Origin: a virus | UHGV virus genome: UHGV-1484817 | Direction: 5' to 3' (one strand) | Length of the DNA stretch: 64,000 nt | In this document: one piece after another, positions 1-51,882 of the stretch | Layout: every line of letters begins with the position of its first letter | Numbering within the stretch: the stretch's first letter is position 1 | Made by a program: the position numbers and the translations under genes | Notes under the pieces: generated by a model | What the model saw: only the letters and a program-made list of their open reading frames with translations | Told to the model about the DNA's origin: nothing | Databases searched by the model: none

Positions 1-982
1 TCACCGTGAAATACCCCGCGTTGATGTACTGCTGGAACGGCACATTTTTACGTCCACCGGACGCTATCAGGATGCCGTTCTCCCGTAACCAGGCAAACAG
101 CGCGTTTTGCTTAAGTCCAACAACCTTTGCAAAATTCCCAATCAGGATCCCTTTAGCTACTGATACCCGGTCGGCAAAATCGACCTTAGGAGCGGCGGCT
201 ACCAGCTGCTGATTTAGCTGGTGGGCTTTCTGTTCCAGAAGCTGCTTTTGTTCAGCCAGTTCGGCAGCCAGGCGTAGGGCTTCTGGTAATGTTTGGGGGA
301 TTGCAACCGGTTGCTGTTCTTTTTGCCGGAAGTAGCTGTCTTCCAGTTTTTCAAAGAATGCCCATGCTTCATTTGTGTCCACGATCTTAGACATGCGTGC
401 AGCGCCGCGCTCTGTCCAGAGTGTAAGGCTTCTGGCGTTCTTACCAACAGAGTAACTTCCGGTTACTCTGTTCTTAAATTCTCTTAATTTTAAACCAGTT
501 AGAAGAAAGTAATGCTTACCTTCTTCAAAGCGGTCAAGGTTGCGAGACAAATTGTTGCGAATATTGGCTTCATCGACCCCATACCCTCTAGCAAGAGTTT
601 CGGTTGTCACGACACGTACTCCCTGCCATTCCAGAACGGGAATTTCATCCGGCTGATTCTGAACAACCACCAGTTCCGATTCCTGAACTGAAGGTGCATA
701 AATTTTTTCTGATTTAACGTTAGTTGCTTTCATTCTGTGTGCCTCCTTGCGTGCTTCGGCTGCGACGGTTGCGTAATTCAGATGACCCTGTTCGAGCAGG
801 TATTCACGGATATCGGTTAGCAGAATGCGGTGAACCGCGTGTTTGTCCTTTCTCCGGTAAAGTTGTTTGGTGATCATGAAGTAGTTGGCAATAACGCCCG
901 GTATATCCCTGGTACTGATACAGGCAGTGTGCTGTTCAATTGCCTCGATCATCTCTTCACGGGTGACTAATGACGTTCTCAT
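1..982 (-). CDS. ant: Antirepressor (Ant-like, KilAC-type C-terminus) paralogue; 3-prime end cut by the window edge
   Basis: Minus-strand frame opens with ATG at 982-980 behind a GGAGG RBS and stays open to the window edge; the first residues (MRTSLVTR...) parallel the 345-aa Ant at 50130-51167. The listed plus-strand ORF 6..212 is its antisense shadow. Confidence 0.7.
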   Translation of the reverse strand, partial: MRTSLVTREEMIEAIEQHTACISTRDIPGVIANYFMITKQLYRRKDKHAVHRILLTDIREYLLEQGHLNYATVAAEARKEAHRMKATNVKSEKIYAPSVQESELVVVQNQPDEIPVLEWQGVRVVTTETLARGYGVDEANIRNNLSRNLDRFEEGKHYFLLTGLKLREFKNRVTGSYSVGKNARSLTLWTERGAARMSKIVDTNEAWAFFEKLEDSYFRQKEQQPVAIPQTLPEALRLAAELAEQKQLLEQKAHQLNQQLVAAAPKVDFADRVSVAKGILIGNFAKVVGLKQNALFAWLRENGILIASGGRKNVPFQQYINAGYFTV

Positions 983-1204: not shown

Positions 1205-1345
1205 GCAGCCTCCTTTTGCTAATTTAAGGAGCTACCGCGTGAGGTTCCAATCTCAATGGCGGTAGCACTGACTGGGTTGGAACTACCGGCGCAAAAGGGA
1301 ACCGGCCTGCCTTTCGGCAGCCCAGCCAGCACTACCATTGATCTC
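1205..1345 (-). ncRNA. c4: c4-like antisense RNA / structured leader of the immI module (boundaries approximate)
   Basis: Non-coding stretch immediately upstream of icd, almost identical to 51390-51530, with short hairpins (CTGCC-GAAA-GGCAG) and internal repeats; position corresponds to c4 in P1 immI. Confidence 0.4.
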
Positions 1346-1385
1346 TGAGCTAAACGCTACGTATGGCTGTGCGATGGCATGACAC

Positions 1386-1408
1386 AAAAAAAGACGCTTT
1401 TGGCGTCT
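1386..1408 (-). terminator. Rho-independent terminator-like hairpin (minus strand)
   Basis: Minus-strand reading AGACGCCAAAAGCGTCT followed by seven T; lies between the pacB stop and the c4 region. Confidence 0.5.
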
Positions 1409-1540
1409 GTGTCGCCTTTTGCATTATCCGGGGTCTCAATCCCGGCACCCGTTTTAATGAGGTGCCTGATAAGCATAAACCGAAAATGCCTCAAGGCGCA
1501 AGAGGTCAGGTTCAATGTAACATCGGTAGTTAAAAAACAC

Positions 1541-1559: not shown

Positions 1560-3044
1560 TCATTCGTTAAGCCATGCCAGAGCTTCATCAACCTGCGCTT
1601 CGTCTTCGACGCTAAGCACTTCATCCTGGGGAACATAATCCGCCAGCATAGCGAAACAATATGTATCCCAATGGTCTGGTGAGTGCAGGTTGAGTTTTTT
1701 CTTCATATCCTCCTTACTCATCACCTTCCATTGACCTGCGGAGTTAATCCCTACAGGGATTTTCGACGCTTCCTCAATAGTTTCATTACCCTTATCCAGT
1801 CTCATACGACCAGATTTTACGGCCTCTGCGGCTTGAACGTTGGCATAAGCACGTTTATCAAAGTACAGGCTCTTATCTTCACGGCTATGCATCTTTTTAC
1901 CCCAGCGTATACGCTGTACGGTAATACCATAATACTCGTACATCAGATCCGCCGTTGCTTTACCCAGGCCATCGCCGTCTATCGCTATGGTGATATTTGG
2001 GAATCGCTCAGGATTACATTCTGCGAAAATTTTGGCGGCAAGCTGCGTTTCTGTAACGTCTGTGTATTCCAGCATTCGATAGTTGATTACACGGCGTTTA
2101 TTTCGCTGGCCGGACACCATCATGATATTGATAACGGACTTATCCCGTCCCGTACCACCAGCAACGTCCACACATGCAAGCCAGCCCCATCCTTTTGCAA
2201 TCTTGACTTTCCGCCGCGTTGCACGTTCAACCTCATCACGTCCAAGAAGGAAGCCATCCTGTGATTTAGGGAATAGGCCGCGTACCTTAATCATGTACAT
2301 AGGGTTATCACGCCCGCCGTACTCCGCCAGCTTCATTTTGATAAATGCTGGCGTTACCAACGGTGATTCCTCACTGTTAAGCGTGATCGCCGTATAAACG
2401 CCATCAGGGTTACCAGGACGCTTGGCCAGTTTATGGTGTGTATCGTAGAAATAGCCGCTTGGGCGTGTAGGCTGTGACAGCAATAAGATGCGGTTATCCT
2501 GTCCGGTAAGAGCACCGGTGATGATACCGAAAGCTCTATCACTGACACCGGAGGCTTCATCGATAATATACAGAAGATGATCTGCGTGTTCACCGGCGAG
2601 AGCTTCTTCACTTCCCAGACGAAAGCCCTTCGGTACTACAGTCCATACACCTTTACCAGTAATCTCATAGAAAGCGGTTTCTGTCAGAACAAAATAATCA
2701 GCAAGCCATGGGAAACGGCTGGTGGCAGTAGCCCAGTTTATCTTGATGTACTTGAATATACCGGTCATTACCTGCTGAATTTTGTTCGCAACGATAATGG
2801 CACGGGCACCTGGATACATGATTATGAACAACATGATCATGATAGAAGTCATGTCTGATTTCCCGGTACCGTGACCAGACGAAACAGATGTCTTGCTACC
2901 CTGTTCCTGCACAGACTCAATAATCAGATCCTGCTGCCAGGTAGGTGTTTTGCCGAACAAAACATCAGCGGCAGCAATCCAGTCATAACGATATAGCGCC
3001 ACCAGCTCGCGCCAACGTGGATCCGTTACGCAACTTCTGGCCAT
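1560..3044 (-). CDS. pacB: Terminase large subunit PacB
   Basis: 494-aa ORF translationally coupled to the upstream pacA-like gene; length and gene order pacA-pacB as in P1. Confidence 0.85.
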
Positions 3045-4237
3045 TAATCATCATCCCCGTATAGCTTGCGGGTAACTTCTTCGTCTTCCTCCTCGTCTTC
3101 GTCCAGGTCTTGTTCCAGCCATGGGTCGTTTGATACACCTTCAGTATCAACATCTCCATAACCGCCTGTATCAACGATATCGGCGATTTCTTCCCTACGC
3201 TGCTCAATCCACAATGCGGCATCGGCGCGGCGGTTGGCGGCCCGTTCTCGCGCAACTTTGTCCAGATCTTCAAGAGAAGGGCCACCGACGGCTGTTTGCC
3301 TTTCCTCATCATCGGTATTGGTCTTAGGAGCACGCAGATCGGCTTTGATTTGCTCCAGCATCAGGGGCGGCACTTTTCCGCCATGCGCCTCGATGAATTC
3401 AGCTGCTTCCAGCACTGACCAGTTATTTTCACGCTTTCGTTCGTATGCCAGCTTAACAATGCCAGCTTGCCCCATAGATAAAGCGTGCTTTTCCGCCTCC
3501 CGGCTTTCTTTTCGATAGTTATTCCGGATGCTGTAAATGGTGTTGATCAGGCTGCTTATCTGCGCGGAACAGCTGTTTAGCATGCTCGCGATACGATATT
3601 CAGGCGGAGTCCCTTCATCATCGTCTTTTTGCTGATCGCGCATTTCCTGCACCAGACGAATACACGTATCCCTGGCATTCTCCAGCATAAGGAGATGAGA
3701 AAGAGACTTTTCCAGAAGAGTGGTTTCCAGAACATCGGCCCCGGACCGACGCAACATAGCGCGCGCAGCCTTCCGCGCTTCAACGTTATCTATCAGGTAA
3801 TCGCCAGCTTCGAATTCAAAGCGTTCACCATCATCATCCAGGGTGTCGCGTTCCAGGCGATCACGTAAGGTCCGGTGGGCGCGGGTGATCACGTCATGAT
3901 CATCAGAACGATCATTTATGCGCTTATTTTGGCGCTTCGCATTCTCGACTGCGGCACTGACAACGGCATTAACCCTTTGTTTTTCCGCTATTTCAGCCGC
4001 AATGTGATCACCTGCATGTTGATCATTAGAGTGATCAATGATCATGCTTTTTAGTGGCTTCCTGACTGGCTTATTTGGCTTGCGGCTGTCCGCTGTCCTG
4101 GTGTCTTCTTTGAAGGCACGGAGATAACGACGTGCAGTATTAGGGTTAAGATTAAACTCGGCGGCATACTGTGCGATGGTGTAACCACCATCTCGCGCCA
4201 GGCGAGCAAAATTCTTCTTGTGATCGTCCCAGGTCAC
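3044..4237 (-). CDS. pacA: Terminase small subunit / pac-recognition protein PacA
   Basis: 397-aa ORF, acidic C-terminus; contains the TGATCA hexamer clusters typical of a P1 pac site within its coding sequence. Confidence 0.85.
3886..4044. other. pac packaging site (two clusters of TGATCA hexamers)
   Basis: TGATCA at 3886, 3897 and at 4005, 4020, 4032, 4039, with a CGATCA at 3909; two clusters about 100 bp apart, the architecture described for P1 pac (Dam-methylatable hexamers). Confidence 0.6.
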
Positions 4238-28167: not shown

Positions 28168-28243
28168 TGGTGGCCCCTACCGGACTTGAACCGGTGACCG
28201 TGCGATTATGAGTCGCCAGCTCTAACCACTGAGCTAAAGGGCC
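28168..28243 (-). tRNA. tRNA-Ile (anticodon CAU, lysidine type)
   Basis: 76 nt with cloverleaf, anticodon loop CTCATAA, T-loop GGTTCAAGTCC, encoded CCA; close to E. coli ileX-type tRNA as I recall it. Confidence 0.8.
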
Positions 28244-29315: not shown

Positions 29316-29477
29316 CCTCTCACTCCATTATTTAACGAATAAAAAAGCTGCGGTGCCGGGTGCCTCCCAGTGTCCTTTGGCTGGTTATCCACCGTGGACG
29401 GGGAAACAAGGAGAAATGAATGGACTGATATAACCATTTCCCCGCGTGCGCTTAGCCGCATTCACCGCAACGGAAAG

Positions 29478-30240
29478 AGCATTCTTGGTGGACCTGTAGA
29501 TTGGGATATGAACCCGTTACAGGAGAATGCTCTTACCTGTTACGTGCTCCGTTTCGTGGAGCTAACGGCGGGTGATCAGACCGCACCAGACTGGACTTAT
29601 TTCAGCGTTATGCTCATGCCAGAGAATCAAACTGTGATGGTCGGTGCTGAACTCCGACACAGGGTTGTAGCAAGCCCCGCAAAGCGCGCACTACTGTAGT
29701 TGCGGCACATCAGCCTGTGCATTCACCACAATGTTGAGAACACTGGTTGTCACGCTGCAACGCAACATTTATTCGTAGATTGGGATATGACCCCGTTACG
29801 CCAGTGTTCTCAACGTTATAGTGCCGGTTACGGTTCCGGCCAGGCCTCTTCCTCAACGGGGTGTTCTCCATACGGACTACCGTTTATTGGTCGTTCCTGC
29901 GGTTTATGTTGTGAAGCCAGATGCTTATCTTCTGGTTGCTTCAAAGAGCTGCACTTCATCACAACGGTAAGAGCACTCGATGCATTTAAGCCAAGCCCCA
30001 TAAGGGAGAATGCCCTTACCTGTTGTGTTGTGATGACCGGTGCTGATCTCCGGCTTGCGGTTATTTCAGACTCTCACGGGCGTTTAATTGCCCCGCCGAA
30101 CAGCTCTTTTCCGCAATAGCTGCAATGTCTTTCGCGCATCAGCCTGCGCATTCATCACAACGGTAAGGGTACTTCGTAGGGATTCGAACCCTCTGCCAAG
30201 CACGGCGATCTCCGACGTCGCAAAATACCCTTACCTGTTG
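29478..30240. repeat. Mosaic of tRNA-like stem-loop repeats
   Basis: Recurrent segments CATTCAYCACAAYGG, GTAGATTGGGATATGAMCCCGTTAC and CCCTTACCTGTTGTG in several copies; the listed ORFs 29370-29699 and 29700-30119 lie in this region and are probably not coding. Confidence 0.5.
30162..30235 (-). ncRNA. tRNA-like element (non-canonical): 10-bp closing stem plus T-arm
   Basis: Minus-strand reading GGTAAGGGTA...AGGG-TTCGAAT-CCCT...TACCCTTACC, 74 nt; canonical T-loop but no convincing D or anticodon arm. Confidence 0.3.
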
Positions 30241-30242
30241 TG

Positions 30243-30318
30243 TTGGTGCCGGTTAACGGACTCGAACCGCTGACATCCTGCTTACAAGGCAGGCGCTCTA
30301 CCAACTGAGCTAAACCGG
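30243..30318 (-). tRNA. tRNA-Thr (anticodon UGU)
   Basis: GCCGGTTTAGCTCAGTTGGTAGAGC...CTTGTAA...GGTTCGAGTCC...CACCA cloverleaf. Confidence 0.85.
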
Positions 30319-30320
30319 CA

Positions 30321-30395
30321 TTGGCGATGGTGGATGGATTCGAACCACCGACCAGTTGGTTAACAGCCAACTGCTCTACCGCTGAGCTACACCAT
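30321..30395 (-). tRNA. tRNA-Asn (anticodon GUU)
   Basis: GATGGTG/CACCATC acceptor stem, anticodon loop CTGTTAA, T-loop TTCGAAT, encoded CCA. Confidence 0.8.
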
Positions 30396-31050
30396 CACTT
30401 GCCGGGTACGTCTCCGGCGAGGGCTTCCACCTCCGTATGCTTTTCGGCGCACCGCGCCCTGGCTGCAATTCGGTAACAGGGGATGCACAACCCTGGCTTC
30501 CAGCGTGATTAGCGCCTTCAGCATGACGGGATATACCCGTAAATTCGTGGAACTGTACCCAAAGTGCTGTTAAGCACCGCTGTTACGCTGAAAAGAAAAC
30601 GCAACAGGAAAGGACGCTGACCAACAGATGGCCCCTTCTCGTTCATCTGGTTAATCACACCAGCGCCCTTACCTGTTGTGCCTCCCCGTTCCCTAATACA
30701 CAGACGGGGACACTCTGCGGTCGATTTTTTGACGGGGGACGACTCATACCCCGTGGCATCTGGCTTCTTAGGCCGCTACCATCATCAGATCATCGTTTGC
30801 ATTTACTTTAATGGTCAGTTTCTAAACCGCCGCAAAGTCGCTAACCATGACGAAAACCCTGAAAAAAACGCCCACCCGAAGATGGGCAAACTGGAAGCTC
30901 GTAACGCACTTCGGCGTTGCCACTTAGGCGCATGGTCAACCTGGCAACTCGGTGGTTTGTCTGGGAGGGCTAGGCCCAGCCATGCTTACCGCCGCGCCTG
31001 TCGCGGCTAACAGCTAAATCGCTCTATAAATCACGATTCATTGAGGCGAT

Positions 31051-43491: not shown

Positions 43492-45081
43492 ATGTCTCAA
43501 TATTCAATTCAACAGTCATTAGGTAATGCATCCGGCGTCGCTGTTAGCCCGATCAATGCCGATGCGACGTTATCTACCGGTGTTGCATTAAATAGCAGCT
43601 TGTGGGCTGGTATTGGCGTATTTGCGCGTGGCAAGCCGTTTACTGTTCTTGCGGTTACTGAGTCCAATTACGAAGATGTTCTCGGCGAACCGCTGAAGCC
43701 GTCTTCCGGCTCACAGTTCGAACCAATTCGTCATGTGTACGAAGCTATTCAGCAAACGTCTGGTTATGTTGTTCGTGCTGTTCCGGATGATGCGAAGTTC
43801 CCGATTATTATGTTCGATGAATCAGGCGAACCAGCTTACAGTGCGTTGCCATACGGTTCTGAAATTGAACTTGATAGCGGCGAAGCCTTTGCTATCTACG
43901 TTGATGATGGTGATCCGTGTATTTCACCTACCCGTGAGTTAACCATCGAAACGGCAACAGCGGACAGCGCGGGTAATGAACGCTTCCTCTTAAAACTGAC
44001 CCAGACGACTTCGCTCGGCGTGGTAACGACCCTGGAGACACACACTGTGTCTTTGGCGGAAGAAGCAAAAGATGACATGGGCCGCTTGTGTTATCTGCCT
44101 ACGGCTCTGGAAGTCCGTTCTAAATATCTGCGCGCGGTTGTTAATGAAGAGCTGATTTCGACGGCGAAAGTAACAAATAAAAAATCGCTGGCGTTCACTG
44201 GCGGTACCAACGGCGATCAGTCGAACATTTCCACTGCTGCTTACCTGCGTGCGGTGAAAGTGCTGAACAATGCGCCGTACATGTACACCGCTGTTCTCGG
44301 CCTGGGTTGCTATGACAATGCGGCGATCACTGCGTTAGGTAATATCTGTTCTGATCGCTTGATTGATGGCTTCTTTGATGTCAAACCGACATTGACGTAC
44401 ACGGAAGCGATCTCTGCTGTTGAAGATACCGGTTTACTTGGTACCGATTATGTAAGCTGTGCTGTCTATCATTTCCCGTTCTCCTGCAAAGACAAATGGA
44501 CCCAATCCCGCGTGGTCTTCGGTCTGTCTGGCGCGGCGTATGCGGCGAAAGCTCGTGGCGTCAAGAAAAACTCCGATGTCGGCGGTTGGCATTACTCACC
44601 GGCTGGTGAAGAACGTGCCGTCATTGCTCGTGCATCACTTCAACCGCTGTATCCGGAAGACACCCCGGACGAAGAAGCTATGGTCAAGGGCCGACTCAAT
44701 AAAGTATCTGTAGGTACTTCGGGCCAGATGATCATCGATGATGCTTTAACTTGCTGCACGCAGGACAACTATCTGCATTTCCAGCACGTCCCATCCCTGA
44801 TGAACGCAATCAGCCGTTTCTTTGTCCAGTTAGCCCGACAGATGAAGCATAACCCGGACGGCATTACTGAGTCTGGCCTGACTAAAGGGATGACCAAACT
44901 TTTGGATCGCTTTGTCGCCTCCGGCGCTCTGGTGGCTCCTCGTGATCCTGATGCTGACGGTACAGAACCGTATGTGCTGAAAGTTACGCAGGCGGAATTC
45001 GATAAATGGGAAGTAGTCTGGGCCTGCTGCCCGACTGGCGTAGCCCGTCGTATCCAGGGCGTACCGCTGCTTATTAAGTAA
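43492..45081 (+). CDS. Probable contractile tail sheath protein
   Basis: 529-aa ORF of sheath-like size and composition followed by tube-like genes; assignment from size and position. Confidence 0.5.
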   Translation: MSQYSIQQSLGNASGVAVSPINADATLSTGVALNSSLWAGIGVFARGKPFTVLAVTESNYEDVLGEPLKPSSGSQFEPIRHVYEAIQQTSGYVVRAVPDDAKFPIIMFDESGEPAYSALPYGSEIELDSGEAFAIYVDDGDPCISPTRELTIETATADSAGNERFLLKLTQTTSLGVVTTLETHTVSLAEEAKDDMGRLCYLPTALEVRSKYLRAVVNEELISTAKVTNKKSLAFTGGTNGDQSNISTAAYLRAVKVLNNAPYMYTAVLGLGCYDNAAITALGNICSDRLIDGFFDVKPTLTYTEAISAVEDTGLLGTDYVSCAVYHFPFSCKDKWTQSRVVFGLSGAAYAAKARGVKKNSDVGGWHYSPAGEERAVIARASLQPLYPEDTPDEEAMVKGRLNKVSVGTSGQMIIDDALTCCTQDNYLHFQHVPSLMNAISRFFVQLARQMKHNPDGITESGLTKGMTKLLDRFVASGALVAPRDPDADGTEPYVLKVTQAEFDKWEVVWACCPTGVARRIQGVPLLIK

Positions 45082-47215: not shown

Positions 47216-47812
47216 ATGGCTGTGATTCCAATGTCGTACTCCCCGGGTACTGTCGCTCGTCGATTTTCGATCCTGGACGGAGTTACCATCCAGGGTGTGC
47301 TTTACCAGGTTATATGGGATTCCAAAACCCCATTTGCAGCTGTAATAGAGGCTGCGCCTTCTGTTATCGATGGTGATATGCGGCATAAGGTTGTCGCTAC
47401 TCTTGAACTTCAACGTCGCCCGCAGCTTGAAGGCGTACTGGTAAGGAAGTTCTGGGAGGATAGCGATGTTGCCCAGATTGAAGGTATCGTGGTTGATGGA
47501 ACTGTCCGGGATGTCGGTTTAGCTACTTTTGTTTACGAAACCGTAGCCTCAAAAGCTGGTGTTGTTTTGCTCAGTGATAATGAGCAATACGAAGGTGGAA
47601 AAGCTCTTTGGCAACATATCGCCCGTCGCTCTTCCGAGCTAAAAGTGTTTATCCTCGACACCGATGCCGCTCAGTATTACCCGTTTGACGGCGAACGTGT
47701 TTGCTATGACGGGGTAAGTATTCCTGAATCCGAGATATGGAGTGAACACCCAGATCGAAGTAAGCATGGGGTTGTTCTGGTCGCTGAATCCATAATTGGA
47801 AATGCGGCATAG
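47216..47812 (+). CDS. Hypothetical protein
   Basis: Start at ATG 47216 behind AGGGGGA; ORF track gives the longer 47180 start. Confidence 0.45.
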   Translation: MAVIPMSYSPGTVARRFSILDGVTIQGVLYQVIWDSKTPFAAVIEAAPSVIDGDMRHKVVATLELQRRPQLEGVLVRKFWEDSDVAQIEGIVVDGTVRDVGLATFVYETVASKAGVVLLSDNEQYEGGKALWQHIARRSSELKVFILDTDAAQYYPFDGERVCYDGVSIPESEIWSEHPDRSKHGVVLVAESIIGNAA

Positions 47813-47994
47813 CAGTAAAAAATTCCTTGCTCCTTAAAATGGGAGAGGGTTAATCTACGTATGCTAAGCATAGATATGGCCTCAGATTAATGTTAAGCGT
47901 CTTGCAGGACGCGTAATGTTATCTGGGGCTTTCTTCTATCTGCTTTTCGGGTAATGCCTGAAGCAGATAGCCTCAAGCACCCGCAACGATTGTA

Positions 47995-51389: not shown

Positions 51390-51530
51390 GCAGCCTCCTT
51401 TTGCTAATTTAAGGAGCTACCGCGTGAGGTTCCAATCTCAATGGCGGTAGCACTGACTGGGTTGGAACTACCGGCGCAAAAGGGAACCGGCCTGCCTTTC
51501 GGCAGCCCAGCCAGCACTACCATTGATCTC
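51390..51530 (-). ncRNA. c4: c4-like antisense RNA / structured leader (boundaries approximate)
   Basis: Near-identical to 1205-1345; same hairpins. Confidence 0.4.
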
Positions 51531-51568
51531 GGAGCTATGTGCTACGTATGGTTGTGCGATGGCATGAC

Positions 51569-51593
51569 ACAAAAAAAGACGCTTTTGGCGTCT
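51569..51593 (-). terminator. Rho-independent terminator-like hairpin (minus strand)
   Basis: Same AGACGCCAAAAGCGTCT plus T-run as at 1386-1408. Confidence 0.45.
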
Positions 51594-51882
51594 ATGTCGC
51601 CTTTTGCATTATCCGGGGTTCCAATCCCGGCATCCGTTTTACTAAGATGCCTGTTTAGGATAAACCGAAAATGCATTAGCACGCAAGCAAGTTAATGTAG
51701 CATATGAAGCTAAAAAAATAAAATAATTAGAGCAACTTGCAACCATGTAAATTATTTCTCTGGTAACTAAAATGTATGAGTTTAATTGATATGGGTCAAA
51801 GATTTTGACCATTGCATGGTGAAACTTTATGCTACAAAATGTTATTTTAAGGCGTTTTATCTGTGGCAGGAGATAGTTAATC

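Follow-up and report, generated by a model that had tools for sequence, protein, structure and literature searches.

Long hairpins and tRNA-like elements beside the tRNA genes of a P1-like phage-plasmid recur in lambda and many other enterobacterial phages

The repeats that surround the tRNA-Asn and tRNA-Thr genes of virus genome UHGV-1484817, analyzed here within a stretch of 64,000 nucleotides (nt; hereafter the window), are built from two kinds of RNA module, long hairpins and cloverleaf-shaped tRNA-like elements (TLEs). Both kinds are selected to pair, oriented with transcription, and common to lambda-like and other enterobacterial phages. The window belongs to a P1-like phage-plasmid that is 98.9% identical to phage RCS47 across the region, and the P1 annotation places the corresponding stretch between the C1-controlled promoter Pban and ban and lists in it a 'dicF-like region' along with trnA (Asn) and trnT (Thr). 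Minus is therefore the sense strand, and all elements are read on it here. On balance, we favor the view that the region forms the middle of the transcript of the repressor-controlled ban operon, a part that is untranslated and heavily structured, with two real tRNAs embedded among modules that would serve in RNA processing and stability. An original prediction made from the sequence of the window had described tRNA-like repeats downstream of these two tRNAs; ARAGORN and Rfam confirm both tRNAs. Its 'tRNA-like' label, and its option of a small RNA family or processing signals, hold in that the repeats are conserved structured RNAs with compensatory changes on the tRNA strand.

Five minus-strand hairpins (U0-U4, Table 1) share a 20-base-pair (bp) stem, CACAAC-A-GGUAAGAGCAUUG / CAGUGCUCUUUCC-GUUGUG, which is made irregular by a bulged A and usually a U-U mismatch, and which is capped by a hypervariable tip of 25-85 nt. 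Folding of each repeat unit, a check that had been proposed with the original prediction, gave five hairpins of -34 to -48 kcal/mol with z-scores of -4.2 to -5.9 relative to shuffled sequences. Their stems extend over approximately 20-30 bp, of which 18 pairs are modelled in R2, the covariance model of the family built in this analysis. R2 matches the 64-kb window at exactly these five sites, with sense scores exceeding those of the mirror match by 18-43 bits (median ~28), and returns 173 matches in 0.9 Mb of related loci. Hairpin models match more than 100 viral contigs, and an exact-pattern scan of IMG/VR found at least 120 loci; among the IMG/VR matches listed there are at least 156 hairpin copies with at least 72 distinct sequences, and at least 30 unrelated families of interior are mounted on the one stem. 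Across 93 distinct copies, 98.3% of alignment cells are paired and 8 of the 18 pairs show compensatory double changes, a level of pairing reached by none of 500 shuffles and well above the 39-58% of slid controls.

The three recurring sequence blocks from which the original prediction had started are all present as the plus-strand view of these minus-strand elements, and a repeat search resolves them into families D1-D7 and inverted repeats I1, I2 and I7. Its count of at least four copies, one near 30667, was likewise borne out, as CCCTTACCTGTTGTG (the reverse complement of CACAACAGGTAAGGG) lies at 29530-29544, 30013-30027, 30228-30242 and 30666-30680, always on the minus strand; four copies of the 15-mer CACAACAGGTAAGRG occur at up to two mismatches where 0.16 are expected, and none of 100 shuffles reached four. 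The 74-nt unit at 30162-30235 (-) that had been singled out as tRNA-sized is indeed structured, stem-closed and equipped with a T-arm, and it lacks a convincing D or anticodon arm. However, its stem is ~21 bp long rather than the 10 bp claimed, and the unit is one variable-tip version of the general hairpin scaffold (the tip of U1) rather than a tRNA-like module proper.

The hairpins are oriented with transcription. They lie directly 3' of tRNA ends, directly after intrinsic terminators or directly 5' of tRNA starts, and all 73 tRNAs that share a locus with a hairpin are on the hairpin strand. Flanking open reading frames (ORFs) of at least 150 amino acids (aa) are co-oriented with the hairpin in 93 of 118 cases upstream and 79 of 111 downstream. 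A recurrent two-hairpin module precedes the hairpins at many loci of P1-like and lambdoid phages, and its stems covary (GCGG/CCGC vs CCAG/CUGG); the fold of the copy in the window is not significant by itself.

The 'spacers' between the hairpins proved to be cloverleaf-like themselves, and the array contains three TLEs, each of which combines D-like and T-like arms with an acceptor stem of 7 bp. Their 5' half, GUUGUG(R)UG-AAU-GCGC-AGGCUGAU-GCGC, follows most hairpins, and their 3' half, GCCGG-AGAUCAGCA-CCGG(Y)-CA(Y)CACA, precedes many. In the general layout the acceptor reads UGUGGUG/CACCACA, the D-like stem has 4 bp and a loop of 8 nt, and the T-like stem, which is stacked on the acceptor, has 5 bp and a loop of 9 nt; in place of a 7-nt-loop anticodon arm there is a variable center of 35-95 nt, with more than 15 different centers found. 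The minimum-energy fold of TLE-A, which is ~98% identical to copies in lambdoid phages and has matches in mEp460 and Stx phages, is cloverleaf-like, and that of TLE-B is a cloverleaf with an extra arm. What had been reported as a degenerate tRNA-Thr 3' end is the T-like arm and acceptor 3' strand of a TLE. The cloverleaf-like nature of the spacers had gone unnoticed in the original prediction, as had the presence of the repeat families far outside P1.

Support for the TLE fold comes from comparison of 21 distinct copies, in which 98.6% of cells are paired (96-100% per helix) and each of the four helices contains a compensatory pair, relative to 26-50% pairing in slid controls. Watson-Crick complementarity links GCUGA of the D-loop with UCAGC of the T-loop in a kissing helix that is 99% paired with two compensatory pairs, and in two phages both loops have changed together to GUCGA/UCGAC. 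A U at position -1 and an acceptor/T minihelix are present, and the 3' tail reads NCC in 12 of the 21 copies and NCCA in 6. The TLEs resemble tRNA (RF00005) in their 7-bp acceptor coaxial with a 5-bp T-like stem, their 4-bp D-like stem and the NCC(A) tail of many copies, and they share strand and operon with real tRNAs. They differ from it in having no anticodon arm, a variable center, a T-like loop of 9 rather than 7 nt, and a predicted elbow contact of five Watson-Crick pairs in place of the canonical G18-G19/psi55-C56. No tRNA call covers U0-U4 or the TLEs, whether from ARAGORN or from the Rfam tRNA model with the E limit relaxed to 10, and a comparison of the units with 44 co-resident phage tRNAs found only the universal T-loop core GGTTCGAATCC in common. 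The TLEs exemplify a natural tRNA scaffold in which the cargo is exchangeable and the elbow has been re-engineered. Two IMG/VR loci (L112 ~606-712 (+) and L089 ~2768-2878 (+)) have in the TLE slot tRNA-like genes whose D and T arms are canonical and which end in ACCA, but whose anticodon region is aberrant, with the normal anticodon loop replaced by an 11-nt loop, UUGCCAWUGCU, that covarying stems close; ARAGORN does not call these genes, and no match to them was found in the phage collection.

Table 1. Features of the array and its immediate surroundings in the 64,000-nt window (R1 and R2, covariance models of the TLE and hairpin families built in this analysis)
Feature	Position	Strand	Description	Evidence
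Tag RNA	30684-30860	-	Conserved RNA with start-less tmRNA-like tag frame; directly upstream of the array; 3' of the P1 'dicF-like region', unannotated in P1	
Terminator	30862-30888	-	Intrinsic terminator of the 'dicF-like region', downstream of Pban	Terminator scan; P1 annotation
Hairpin U0	30594-30684	-	Upstream of tRNA-Asn; the usually bulged A is paired here	R2 47.2 bits, E 1e-11; -46.3 kcal/mol, z -5.7
tRNA-Asn (GUU)	30322-30396	-		ARAGORN; Rfam tRNA 73.9 bits
tRNA-Thr (UGU)	30244-30319	-		ARAGORN; Rfam tRNA 74.9 bits
Hairpin U1	30150-30246	-	Tip with perfect T-arm AGGG-UUCGAAU-CCCU	R2 60.1 bits; -43.1 kcal/mol, z -4.3; no ARAGORN or Rfam tRNA call
TLE-A	30023-30160	-	Acceptor UGUGAUG/CAUCACA; D-like GCGC-AGGCUGAU-GCGC; T-like GCCGG-AGAUCAGCA-CCGGU	R1 93.3 bits, E 1e-19
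Hairpin U2	29954-30031	-	Same hairpin after tR' in lambdoid prophages (L005, L006)	R2 61.7 bits
Possible miniature TLE (weak)	29893-29962	-	GUGAUGAAG...CCAGA-AGAUAAGCA-UCUGG-CUUCACAAC	Read from sequence
Hairpin U3	29721-29825	-	Stem sequence divergent yet pairing; tip with ACGGGGUCAUAUCCCAAUC	R2 47 bits; -47.7 kcal/mol, z -5.9
TLE-B	29627-29731	-	Acceptor UGUGGUG/CAUCACA; D stem GCAC/GUGC; T stem GUCGG/CCGAC	R1 79.6 bits, E 2e-16
Two-hairpin module	29549-29626	-	GGUGCGG...CCCGCC + GCUCC-ACGAAAC-GGAGC	Recurrent flank
Hairpin U4	29460-29548	-	Tip with ACGGGUUCAUAUCCCAAUC	R2 70.5 bits, E 9e-19; z -4.4
TLE-C	29343-29470	-	STnc100-like; acceptor UGCGGUG/CACCGCA; D-like GCG-GCUAAG-CGC; T-like CUGGG-AGGCA-CCCGG; then GCUUUUUU	R1, Rfam

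Within the untranslated leader the dicF-like terminator, upstream of the array, is the only terminator-like site on the sense strand, and a scan found no promoter-like site inside the array. The putative miniature TLE folds no better than shuffles (z 0.3) and has no R1 match. Downstream of the array the minus strand carries a 78-aa membrane-like ORF and an SPFH/Band-7 lipoprotein, and tRNA calling places a tRNA-Met/CAU at 28168-28243.

The third TLE is a relative, through a distant tie, of the STnc100 family of Rfam. TLE-C lies just upstream of the 78-aa ORF, matches R1 at 23.6 bits (E 0.01) and folds at -53.3 kcal/mol (z -3.6); its match to RF02076, at 32.7 bits (E 7e-5) over model positions 31-147, is below the gathering score of 47. 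The Qin prophage has a homologue of TLE-C in its dicF-dicB spacer, which R1 matches at 26.5 bits and which aligns with STnc100 over the entire model. Features that TLE-C has in common with STnc100/PasD and the Qin spacer are a closing stem of 7 bp, an initial hairpin that follows a linker of 3-4 nt and a final hairpin that stacks on the closing stem, whereas TLE-A and TLE-B, with their complementary D and T loops, have no RF02076 match. We found no description of the STnc100-type fold as tRNA-like. STnc100/PasD are Hfq-bound small RNAs (sRNAs) with mapped targets (bioRxiv 10.64898/2026.05.13.724894).

The modules are building blocks common to lambda and many enterobacterial phages, most of them undescribed. 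In lambda itself (NC_001416) the hairpin occupies 44783-44868 and immediately follows tR', the 6S RNA terminator (R2 69.7 bits; -34.3 kcal/mol, z -4.1). Its late-operon leader, likewise a long untranslated phage operon leader, has an identical stem sequence, but there is one copy instead of five and the tips are unrelated. A TLE-like element stands right after the lambda hairpin (44857-44941; L171 1058-1142), with a 9-bp closing stem, GUUGUGCUG/CAGCACAAC, and two internal hairpins, followed by CCC. No Rfam entry matched the hairpin family as such, so even the lambda late leader carries RNA families absent from that catalogue, and a literature search for the stem and TLE sequences found no relevant papers. 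In a scan with one genome per species, the family was found in Escherichia, Klebsiella, Citrobacter, Enterobacter, Kluyvera, Serratia, Pantoea, Brenneria, Rouxiella and other Enterobacterales. The contexts in which hairpins were seen include the PL leader (mEp460), the late leader between Q and holin, operons of structural genes and a virulent phage of the N4-like type. Phi80 M3 RNA, the classical phage RNase P substrate, was considered as a homologue and set aside; it is annotated as the phi80 oop homologue, and neither R1 nor R2 matches phi80. Identical 70-nt hairpin matches also appeared in assemblies of Pseudomonas, Shewanella, Oceanobacillus and Neobacillus (L132, L144, L150, L153, L161 and others). 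Several of these contigs are ~48.4-48.5 kb long and/or have ~1x coverage, and the same match occurs on short contigs of other taxa; they look like contamination of public assemblies by lambda (48,502 bp), which is why the lambda genome was examined.

Comparison within the P1 family, proposed originally as a way to see whether the repeats are conserved or expanding, showed that the modules recur but that their content varies. P1 itself is without TLE-A and U2, other P1-like phages have two to five hairpins with different hairpin types directly after tRNA-Thr, and D6 and Ro157c2YLVW have tRNA-Ser or tRNA-Tyr in these slots. The conserved stems therefore mark the joints of exchanged cassettes.

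How might such an array work? The hairpin stems offer, in a transcribed region, the ~20 bp or more of double-stranded RNA that characterizes RNase III substrates, and under the model that we favor on balance U0-U4 would be cut by RNase III while the tRNAs and TLEs would be released by RNase P, with a U at -1 and an acceptor/T minihelix, and trimmed at their 3' ends. The leader would thereby be chopped into tRNAs, small stable RNAs and a stabilized downstream mRNA with a defined 5' end, and its dense structure may shield ribosome-free RNA from Rho and exonucleases. The kissing of D-like and T-like loops would imitate the tRNA elbow, and the conserved stems double as homology patches for phage cassette swaps. 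The TLEs offer a concrete and testable picture of the processing of long untranslated operon leaders, and of the production of small RNAs, by temperate phages. P1 C4 RNA is an RNase P substrate according to Hartmann (1995) as cited in PMC11143913. The C4 RNAs of P1 and P7, CI RNA of P4, plant-virus tRNA-like structures and mascRNA all have ends formed by the machinery of tRNA processing although they are not tRNAs, and C4 comes from the same phage family as the window and occurs in it (1255-1342 and 51440-51527); however, none has a sequence relationship to the TLEs, whose cleavage by RNase P is a prediction. Neisseria Correia elements, which are cut by RNase III, and ERIC/REP sequences resemble the hairpins described here in that they are transcribed, recur as imperfect palindromes and fold into long hairpins. 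Those elements are mobile or chromosomal with conserved interiors, whereas the hairpins of the window are phage-borne and oriented and conserve the stem alone.

Several points weigh against the processing model. We infer all RNase III and RNase P assignments, and the probable tie of the hairpin family to a lambda RNase III site is a candidate that rests on a cited title, that of Daniels, Subbarao, Blattner and Lozeron (Virology 1988, as cited in PMC7547250), who reported sites at which RNase III processes the late transcript of lambda. The strong conservation of the 20-nt stem sequence exceeds the known need of RNase III, and the lambda hairpin does not appear in the global minimum-energy structure when 612 nt of the lambda leader are folded. 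TLE-A and TLE-B of the window do not end in CCA, and since minimum-energy folds of TLEs do not outdo those of shuffles (z -0.7 to -1.6), support for the TLEs is comparative only. The hairpin alignment (A4) was fitted to the model structure, and the shuffle controls overstate significance because diversity is low and the copies are related by descent and recombination.

Four other readings of the region have to be weighed. On the plus strand, open frames of 109 and 139 aa (29370-29699 (+) and 29700-30119 (+)) are annotated as upl and plp in P1 (NC_005856), which would make this a region coding for the proteins Upl and Plp. Neither frame has a Pfam match, P1 plp overlaps trnT on the opposite strand, and both frames are built wholly from array modules, so that they are the antisense of the RNA array and their sequence is fully explained by RNA structures on the other strand. 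Moreover, hairpin copies are 60-103 nt long and differ (62, 70, 73, 76, 81 nt and so on) by lengths that are not multiples of three, as a result of which no reading frame survives, and the modules are reshuffled between phages. A coding function is scarcely credible, and upl and plp in this region are very probably artefacts and not genes, in agreement with the doubt originally voiced about the two ORFs; two long-standing P1 gene annotations would thus give way to structured RNAs. In phage Pollock a 'hypothetical protein' coding sequence likewise lies over a hairpin (L174 871-1110 vs hairpin 846-936). The original prediction had also raised decayed tRNA duplicates, functionless and alike only through recent ancestry and recombination. 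This idea draws on the T-arm in U1, a second T-arm-like hairpin in a P1-like phage (L012), the real tRNAs in the equivalent slots of D6 and Ro157c2YLVW, the identity of the TLE T-stem GCCGG/CCGGC with that of the canonical-looking L112 tRNA-like genes, and the presence in an mEp460 hairpin of CGGGCUCAUAACCC, which we take to be the anticodon stem-loop core of E. coli initiator tRNA. Selection for pairing speaks against it, as compensatory changes have preserved each of the four TLE helices along with the loop-loop helix, with D and T loops replaced jointly and without drift, and the elements are spread over Escherichia, Klebsiella, Citrobacter, Serratia, Pantoea, Brenneria and others. The failure of tRNA calling and the lack of likeness to co-resident tRNAs beyond the T-loop core point the same way, and recent duplication of the neighboring tRNAs was rejected on that core being all they have in common. 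We regard decayed duplicates as improbable.

Equally improbable in our judgment is that the repeats act as DNA, either as miniature inverted-repeat mobile elements or as recombination linkers at the boundaries of mosaic modules, with the RNA fold being incidental. The inverted repeats do have variable centers, cassette number differs among P1-like phages with breakpoints at the stems, and the same hairpin occurs in the unrelated contexts listed above. But no target-site duplications were seen in the hairpin flanks, there is no associated transposase, orientation is fixed relative to transcription, and the many unrelated interiors are at odds with mobile elements, whose copies normally share theirs. 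The asymmetric bulged A on the 5' strand, the U-U mismatch and the G-U pairs, which raise the sense score above antisense by ~18-43 bits, fit RNA and not cruciforms. The main rival, which we consider unlikely though less so than the preceding ones, is that the modules are trans-acting regulatory sRNAs in which the stem or tRNA-like frame is a scaffold that shows variable cargo (the tips and TLE centers) to host or phage RNAs in the manner of DicF, PasD and STnc100. It is compatible with processing but locates function in the variable parts, and the wealth of unrelated tips and centers would suit it, as would the grouping of TLE-C with Hfq-bound STnc100/PasD, the presence of DicF at the same operon position in Qin, and the own promoters of several tag-RNA (see below) and TLE loci. 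On the other side, no target complementarity was found, other hairpins are all that the tips match in 1.1 Mb of phage sequence (which also led us to reject the tips as captured fragments of other phage genes), and the unconstrained loops of a processing hairpin would look equally variable. A tip motif that is conserved, ACGGG-NUCAUAN-CCCAAUC, is shared by U3 (29775-29795 -), U4 (29496-29516 -) and the mEp460 hairpin with CGGGCUCAUAACCC (L004 ~2395-2415 -), yet it is precisely deleted in phage Ro157c2YLVW.

Other known elements were compared with the hairpin. The 3' strand of its stem reads UGCUCUUU/UGCUCUUA (e.g. 29965-29975 (-)), which we take to be a boxA core (a NusB/S10 site, like rrn boxA); a role as a NusB/E site was set aside, with UGCUCUUU being sequestered in the stem and occurring in Q-controlled leaders too. 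An integron attC-like site was dismissed on a partial R-box consensus match and no integrase, and an HK022 put-type antiterminator was set aside, with no R2 match in the HK022 immunity region. The flanking sequences CAUCACAAC and GUUGUGAUG presumably resemble the GcvB R1 seed and its targets.

Directly upstream of the array lies a conserved RNA with a frame resembling that of transfer-messenger RNA (tmRNA), here called the tag RNA. Its frame at 30800-30768 (-), GCA AAC GAT GAT CTG ATG ATG GTA GCG GCC TAA, encodes ANDDLMMVAA* and has no start codon, and E. coli SsrA reads ANDENYALAA. The sequences show UA at -5/-4 before the Ala codon; its counterpart in E. coli tmRNA is U85/A86, which has a role in tmRNA. 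Copies of the module occur in 687 of 50,697 phage records, temperate and virulent, including Ackermannviridae and Felix-O1-like, Erwinia, N4-like and T1-like phages. The frame always has 10 codons, and at least nine variants occur in at least seven phage lineages (among them ANDNTFLAVA, ANDNVFLAVA, ANDAQFLAVA, ANDDVVLMAA, ANDEQFLAVA and ANEEMYLAVA), with all three stop codons in use and variation that is mostly at third positions, conservative or synonymous. A hairpin around the stop codon shows covariation, and several copies have their own promoter. The tag RNA is therefore like tmRNA in its Ala-first start-less frame, the UA, a length of ~10 codons ending in small hydrophobic residues and a stop in a hairpin, but it has no detected tRNA-like domain (G3-U70 acceptor, T-arm, CCA); ARAGORN makes no tmRNA call, and Rfam gives only a weak tmRNA_permuted match of 24 bits. 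A tRNA-like domain in cis that would complete a tmRNA was rejected, as the downstream tRNA-like partners of the tag RNA differ from one lineage to another. In phage EC6 (L173 ~1373-1447), 100-170 nt downstream of the tag RNA, there is an uncalled tRNA-like element with an acceptor of CGGGGCG/CGCCUCG that includes G3-U70, with A73, CCA and a UCU anticodon-like loop and without a D-arm, and within the same range of distance in Cba120 (L172 ~1395-1480) there is an uncalled mini tRNA-like element with a T-arm and CCCA. An exhaustive survey of 2014 found ssrA only in mycobacteriophages and Bacillus phage G (PMC4131195), and a literature search for the tag peptides found no relevant paper.

The 5' end of the tag RNA carries a conserved motif, GUUUUCGUC, at 30857-30849 (-). 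In the form (UA)GUUUUCGU(C) it is perfectly complementary to nt 96-106 of E. coli tmRNA, which are tag codons 3-6, GACGAAAACUA, over a run of 8-11 nt depending on lineage (L006 ~3077-3087; L174; L175). In lineages whose extracted sequence included the 5' end, this motif is the longest tmRNA-complementary run; for EC6 and Prophecy, whose extracted sequence began downstream of the motif, the complementarity was read by eye. Tentatively, the leader of this operon and the tRNA regions of hundreds of enterobacterial phages might constitute a kit that manipulates the tRNA-dependent machinery of the host, an idea we put forward with low confidence. Such a kit would combine tRNA mimics, with an elbow made by a loop-loop helix and an anticodon domain replaced by variable cargo, and a message RNA with a resume-type Ala codon after the UA and a 10-codon degron-like tag; because its 5' end is antisense to host tmRNA tag codons, the latter could block or re-programme host ribosome rescue during infection. 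If the tag RNA does take part in trans-translation, it would represent a new viral way to interfere with ribosome rescue.

Elsewhere in the window, a sok antitoxin RNA lies at 47808-47982 (-). The C4 antisense RNA is paired with IsrK in two copies, at 1255-1465 (-) and 51440-51650 (-), which are 50,185 nt apart; a wrap-around of the window was rejected as their origin, and they are a local repeat.

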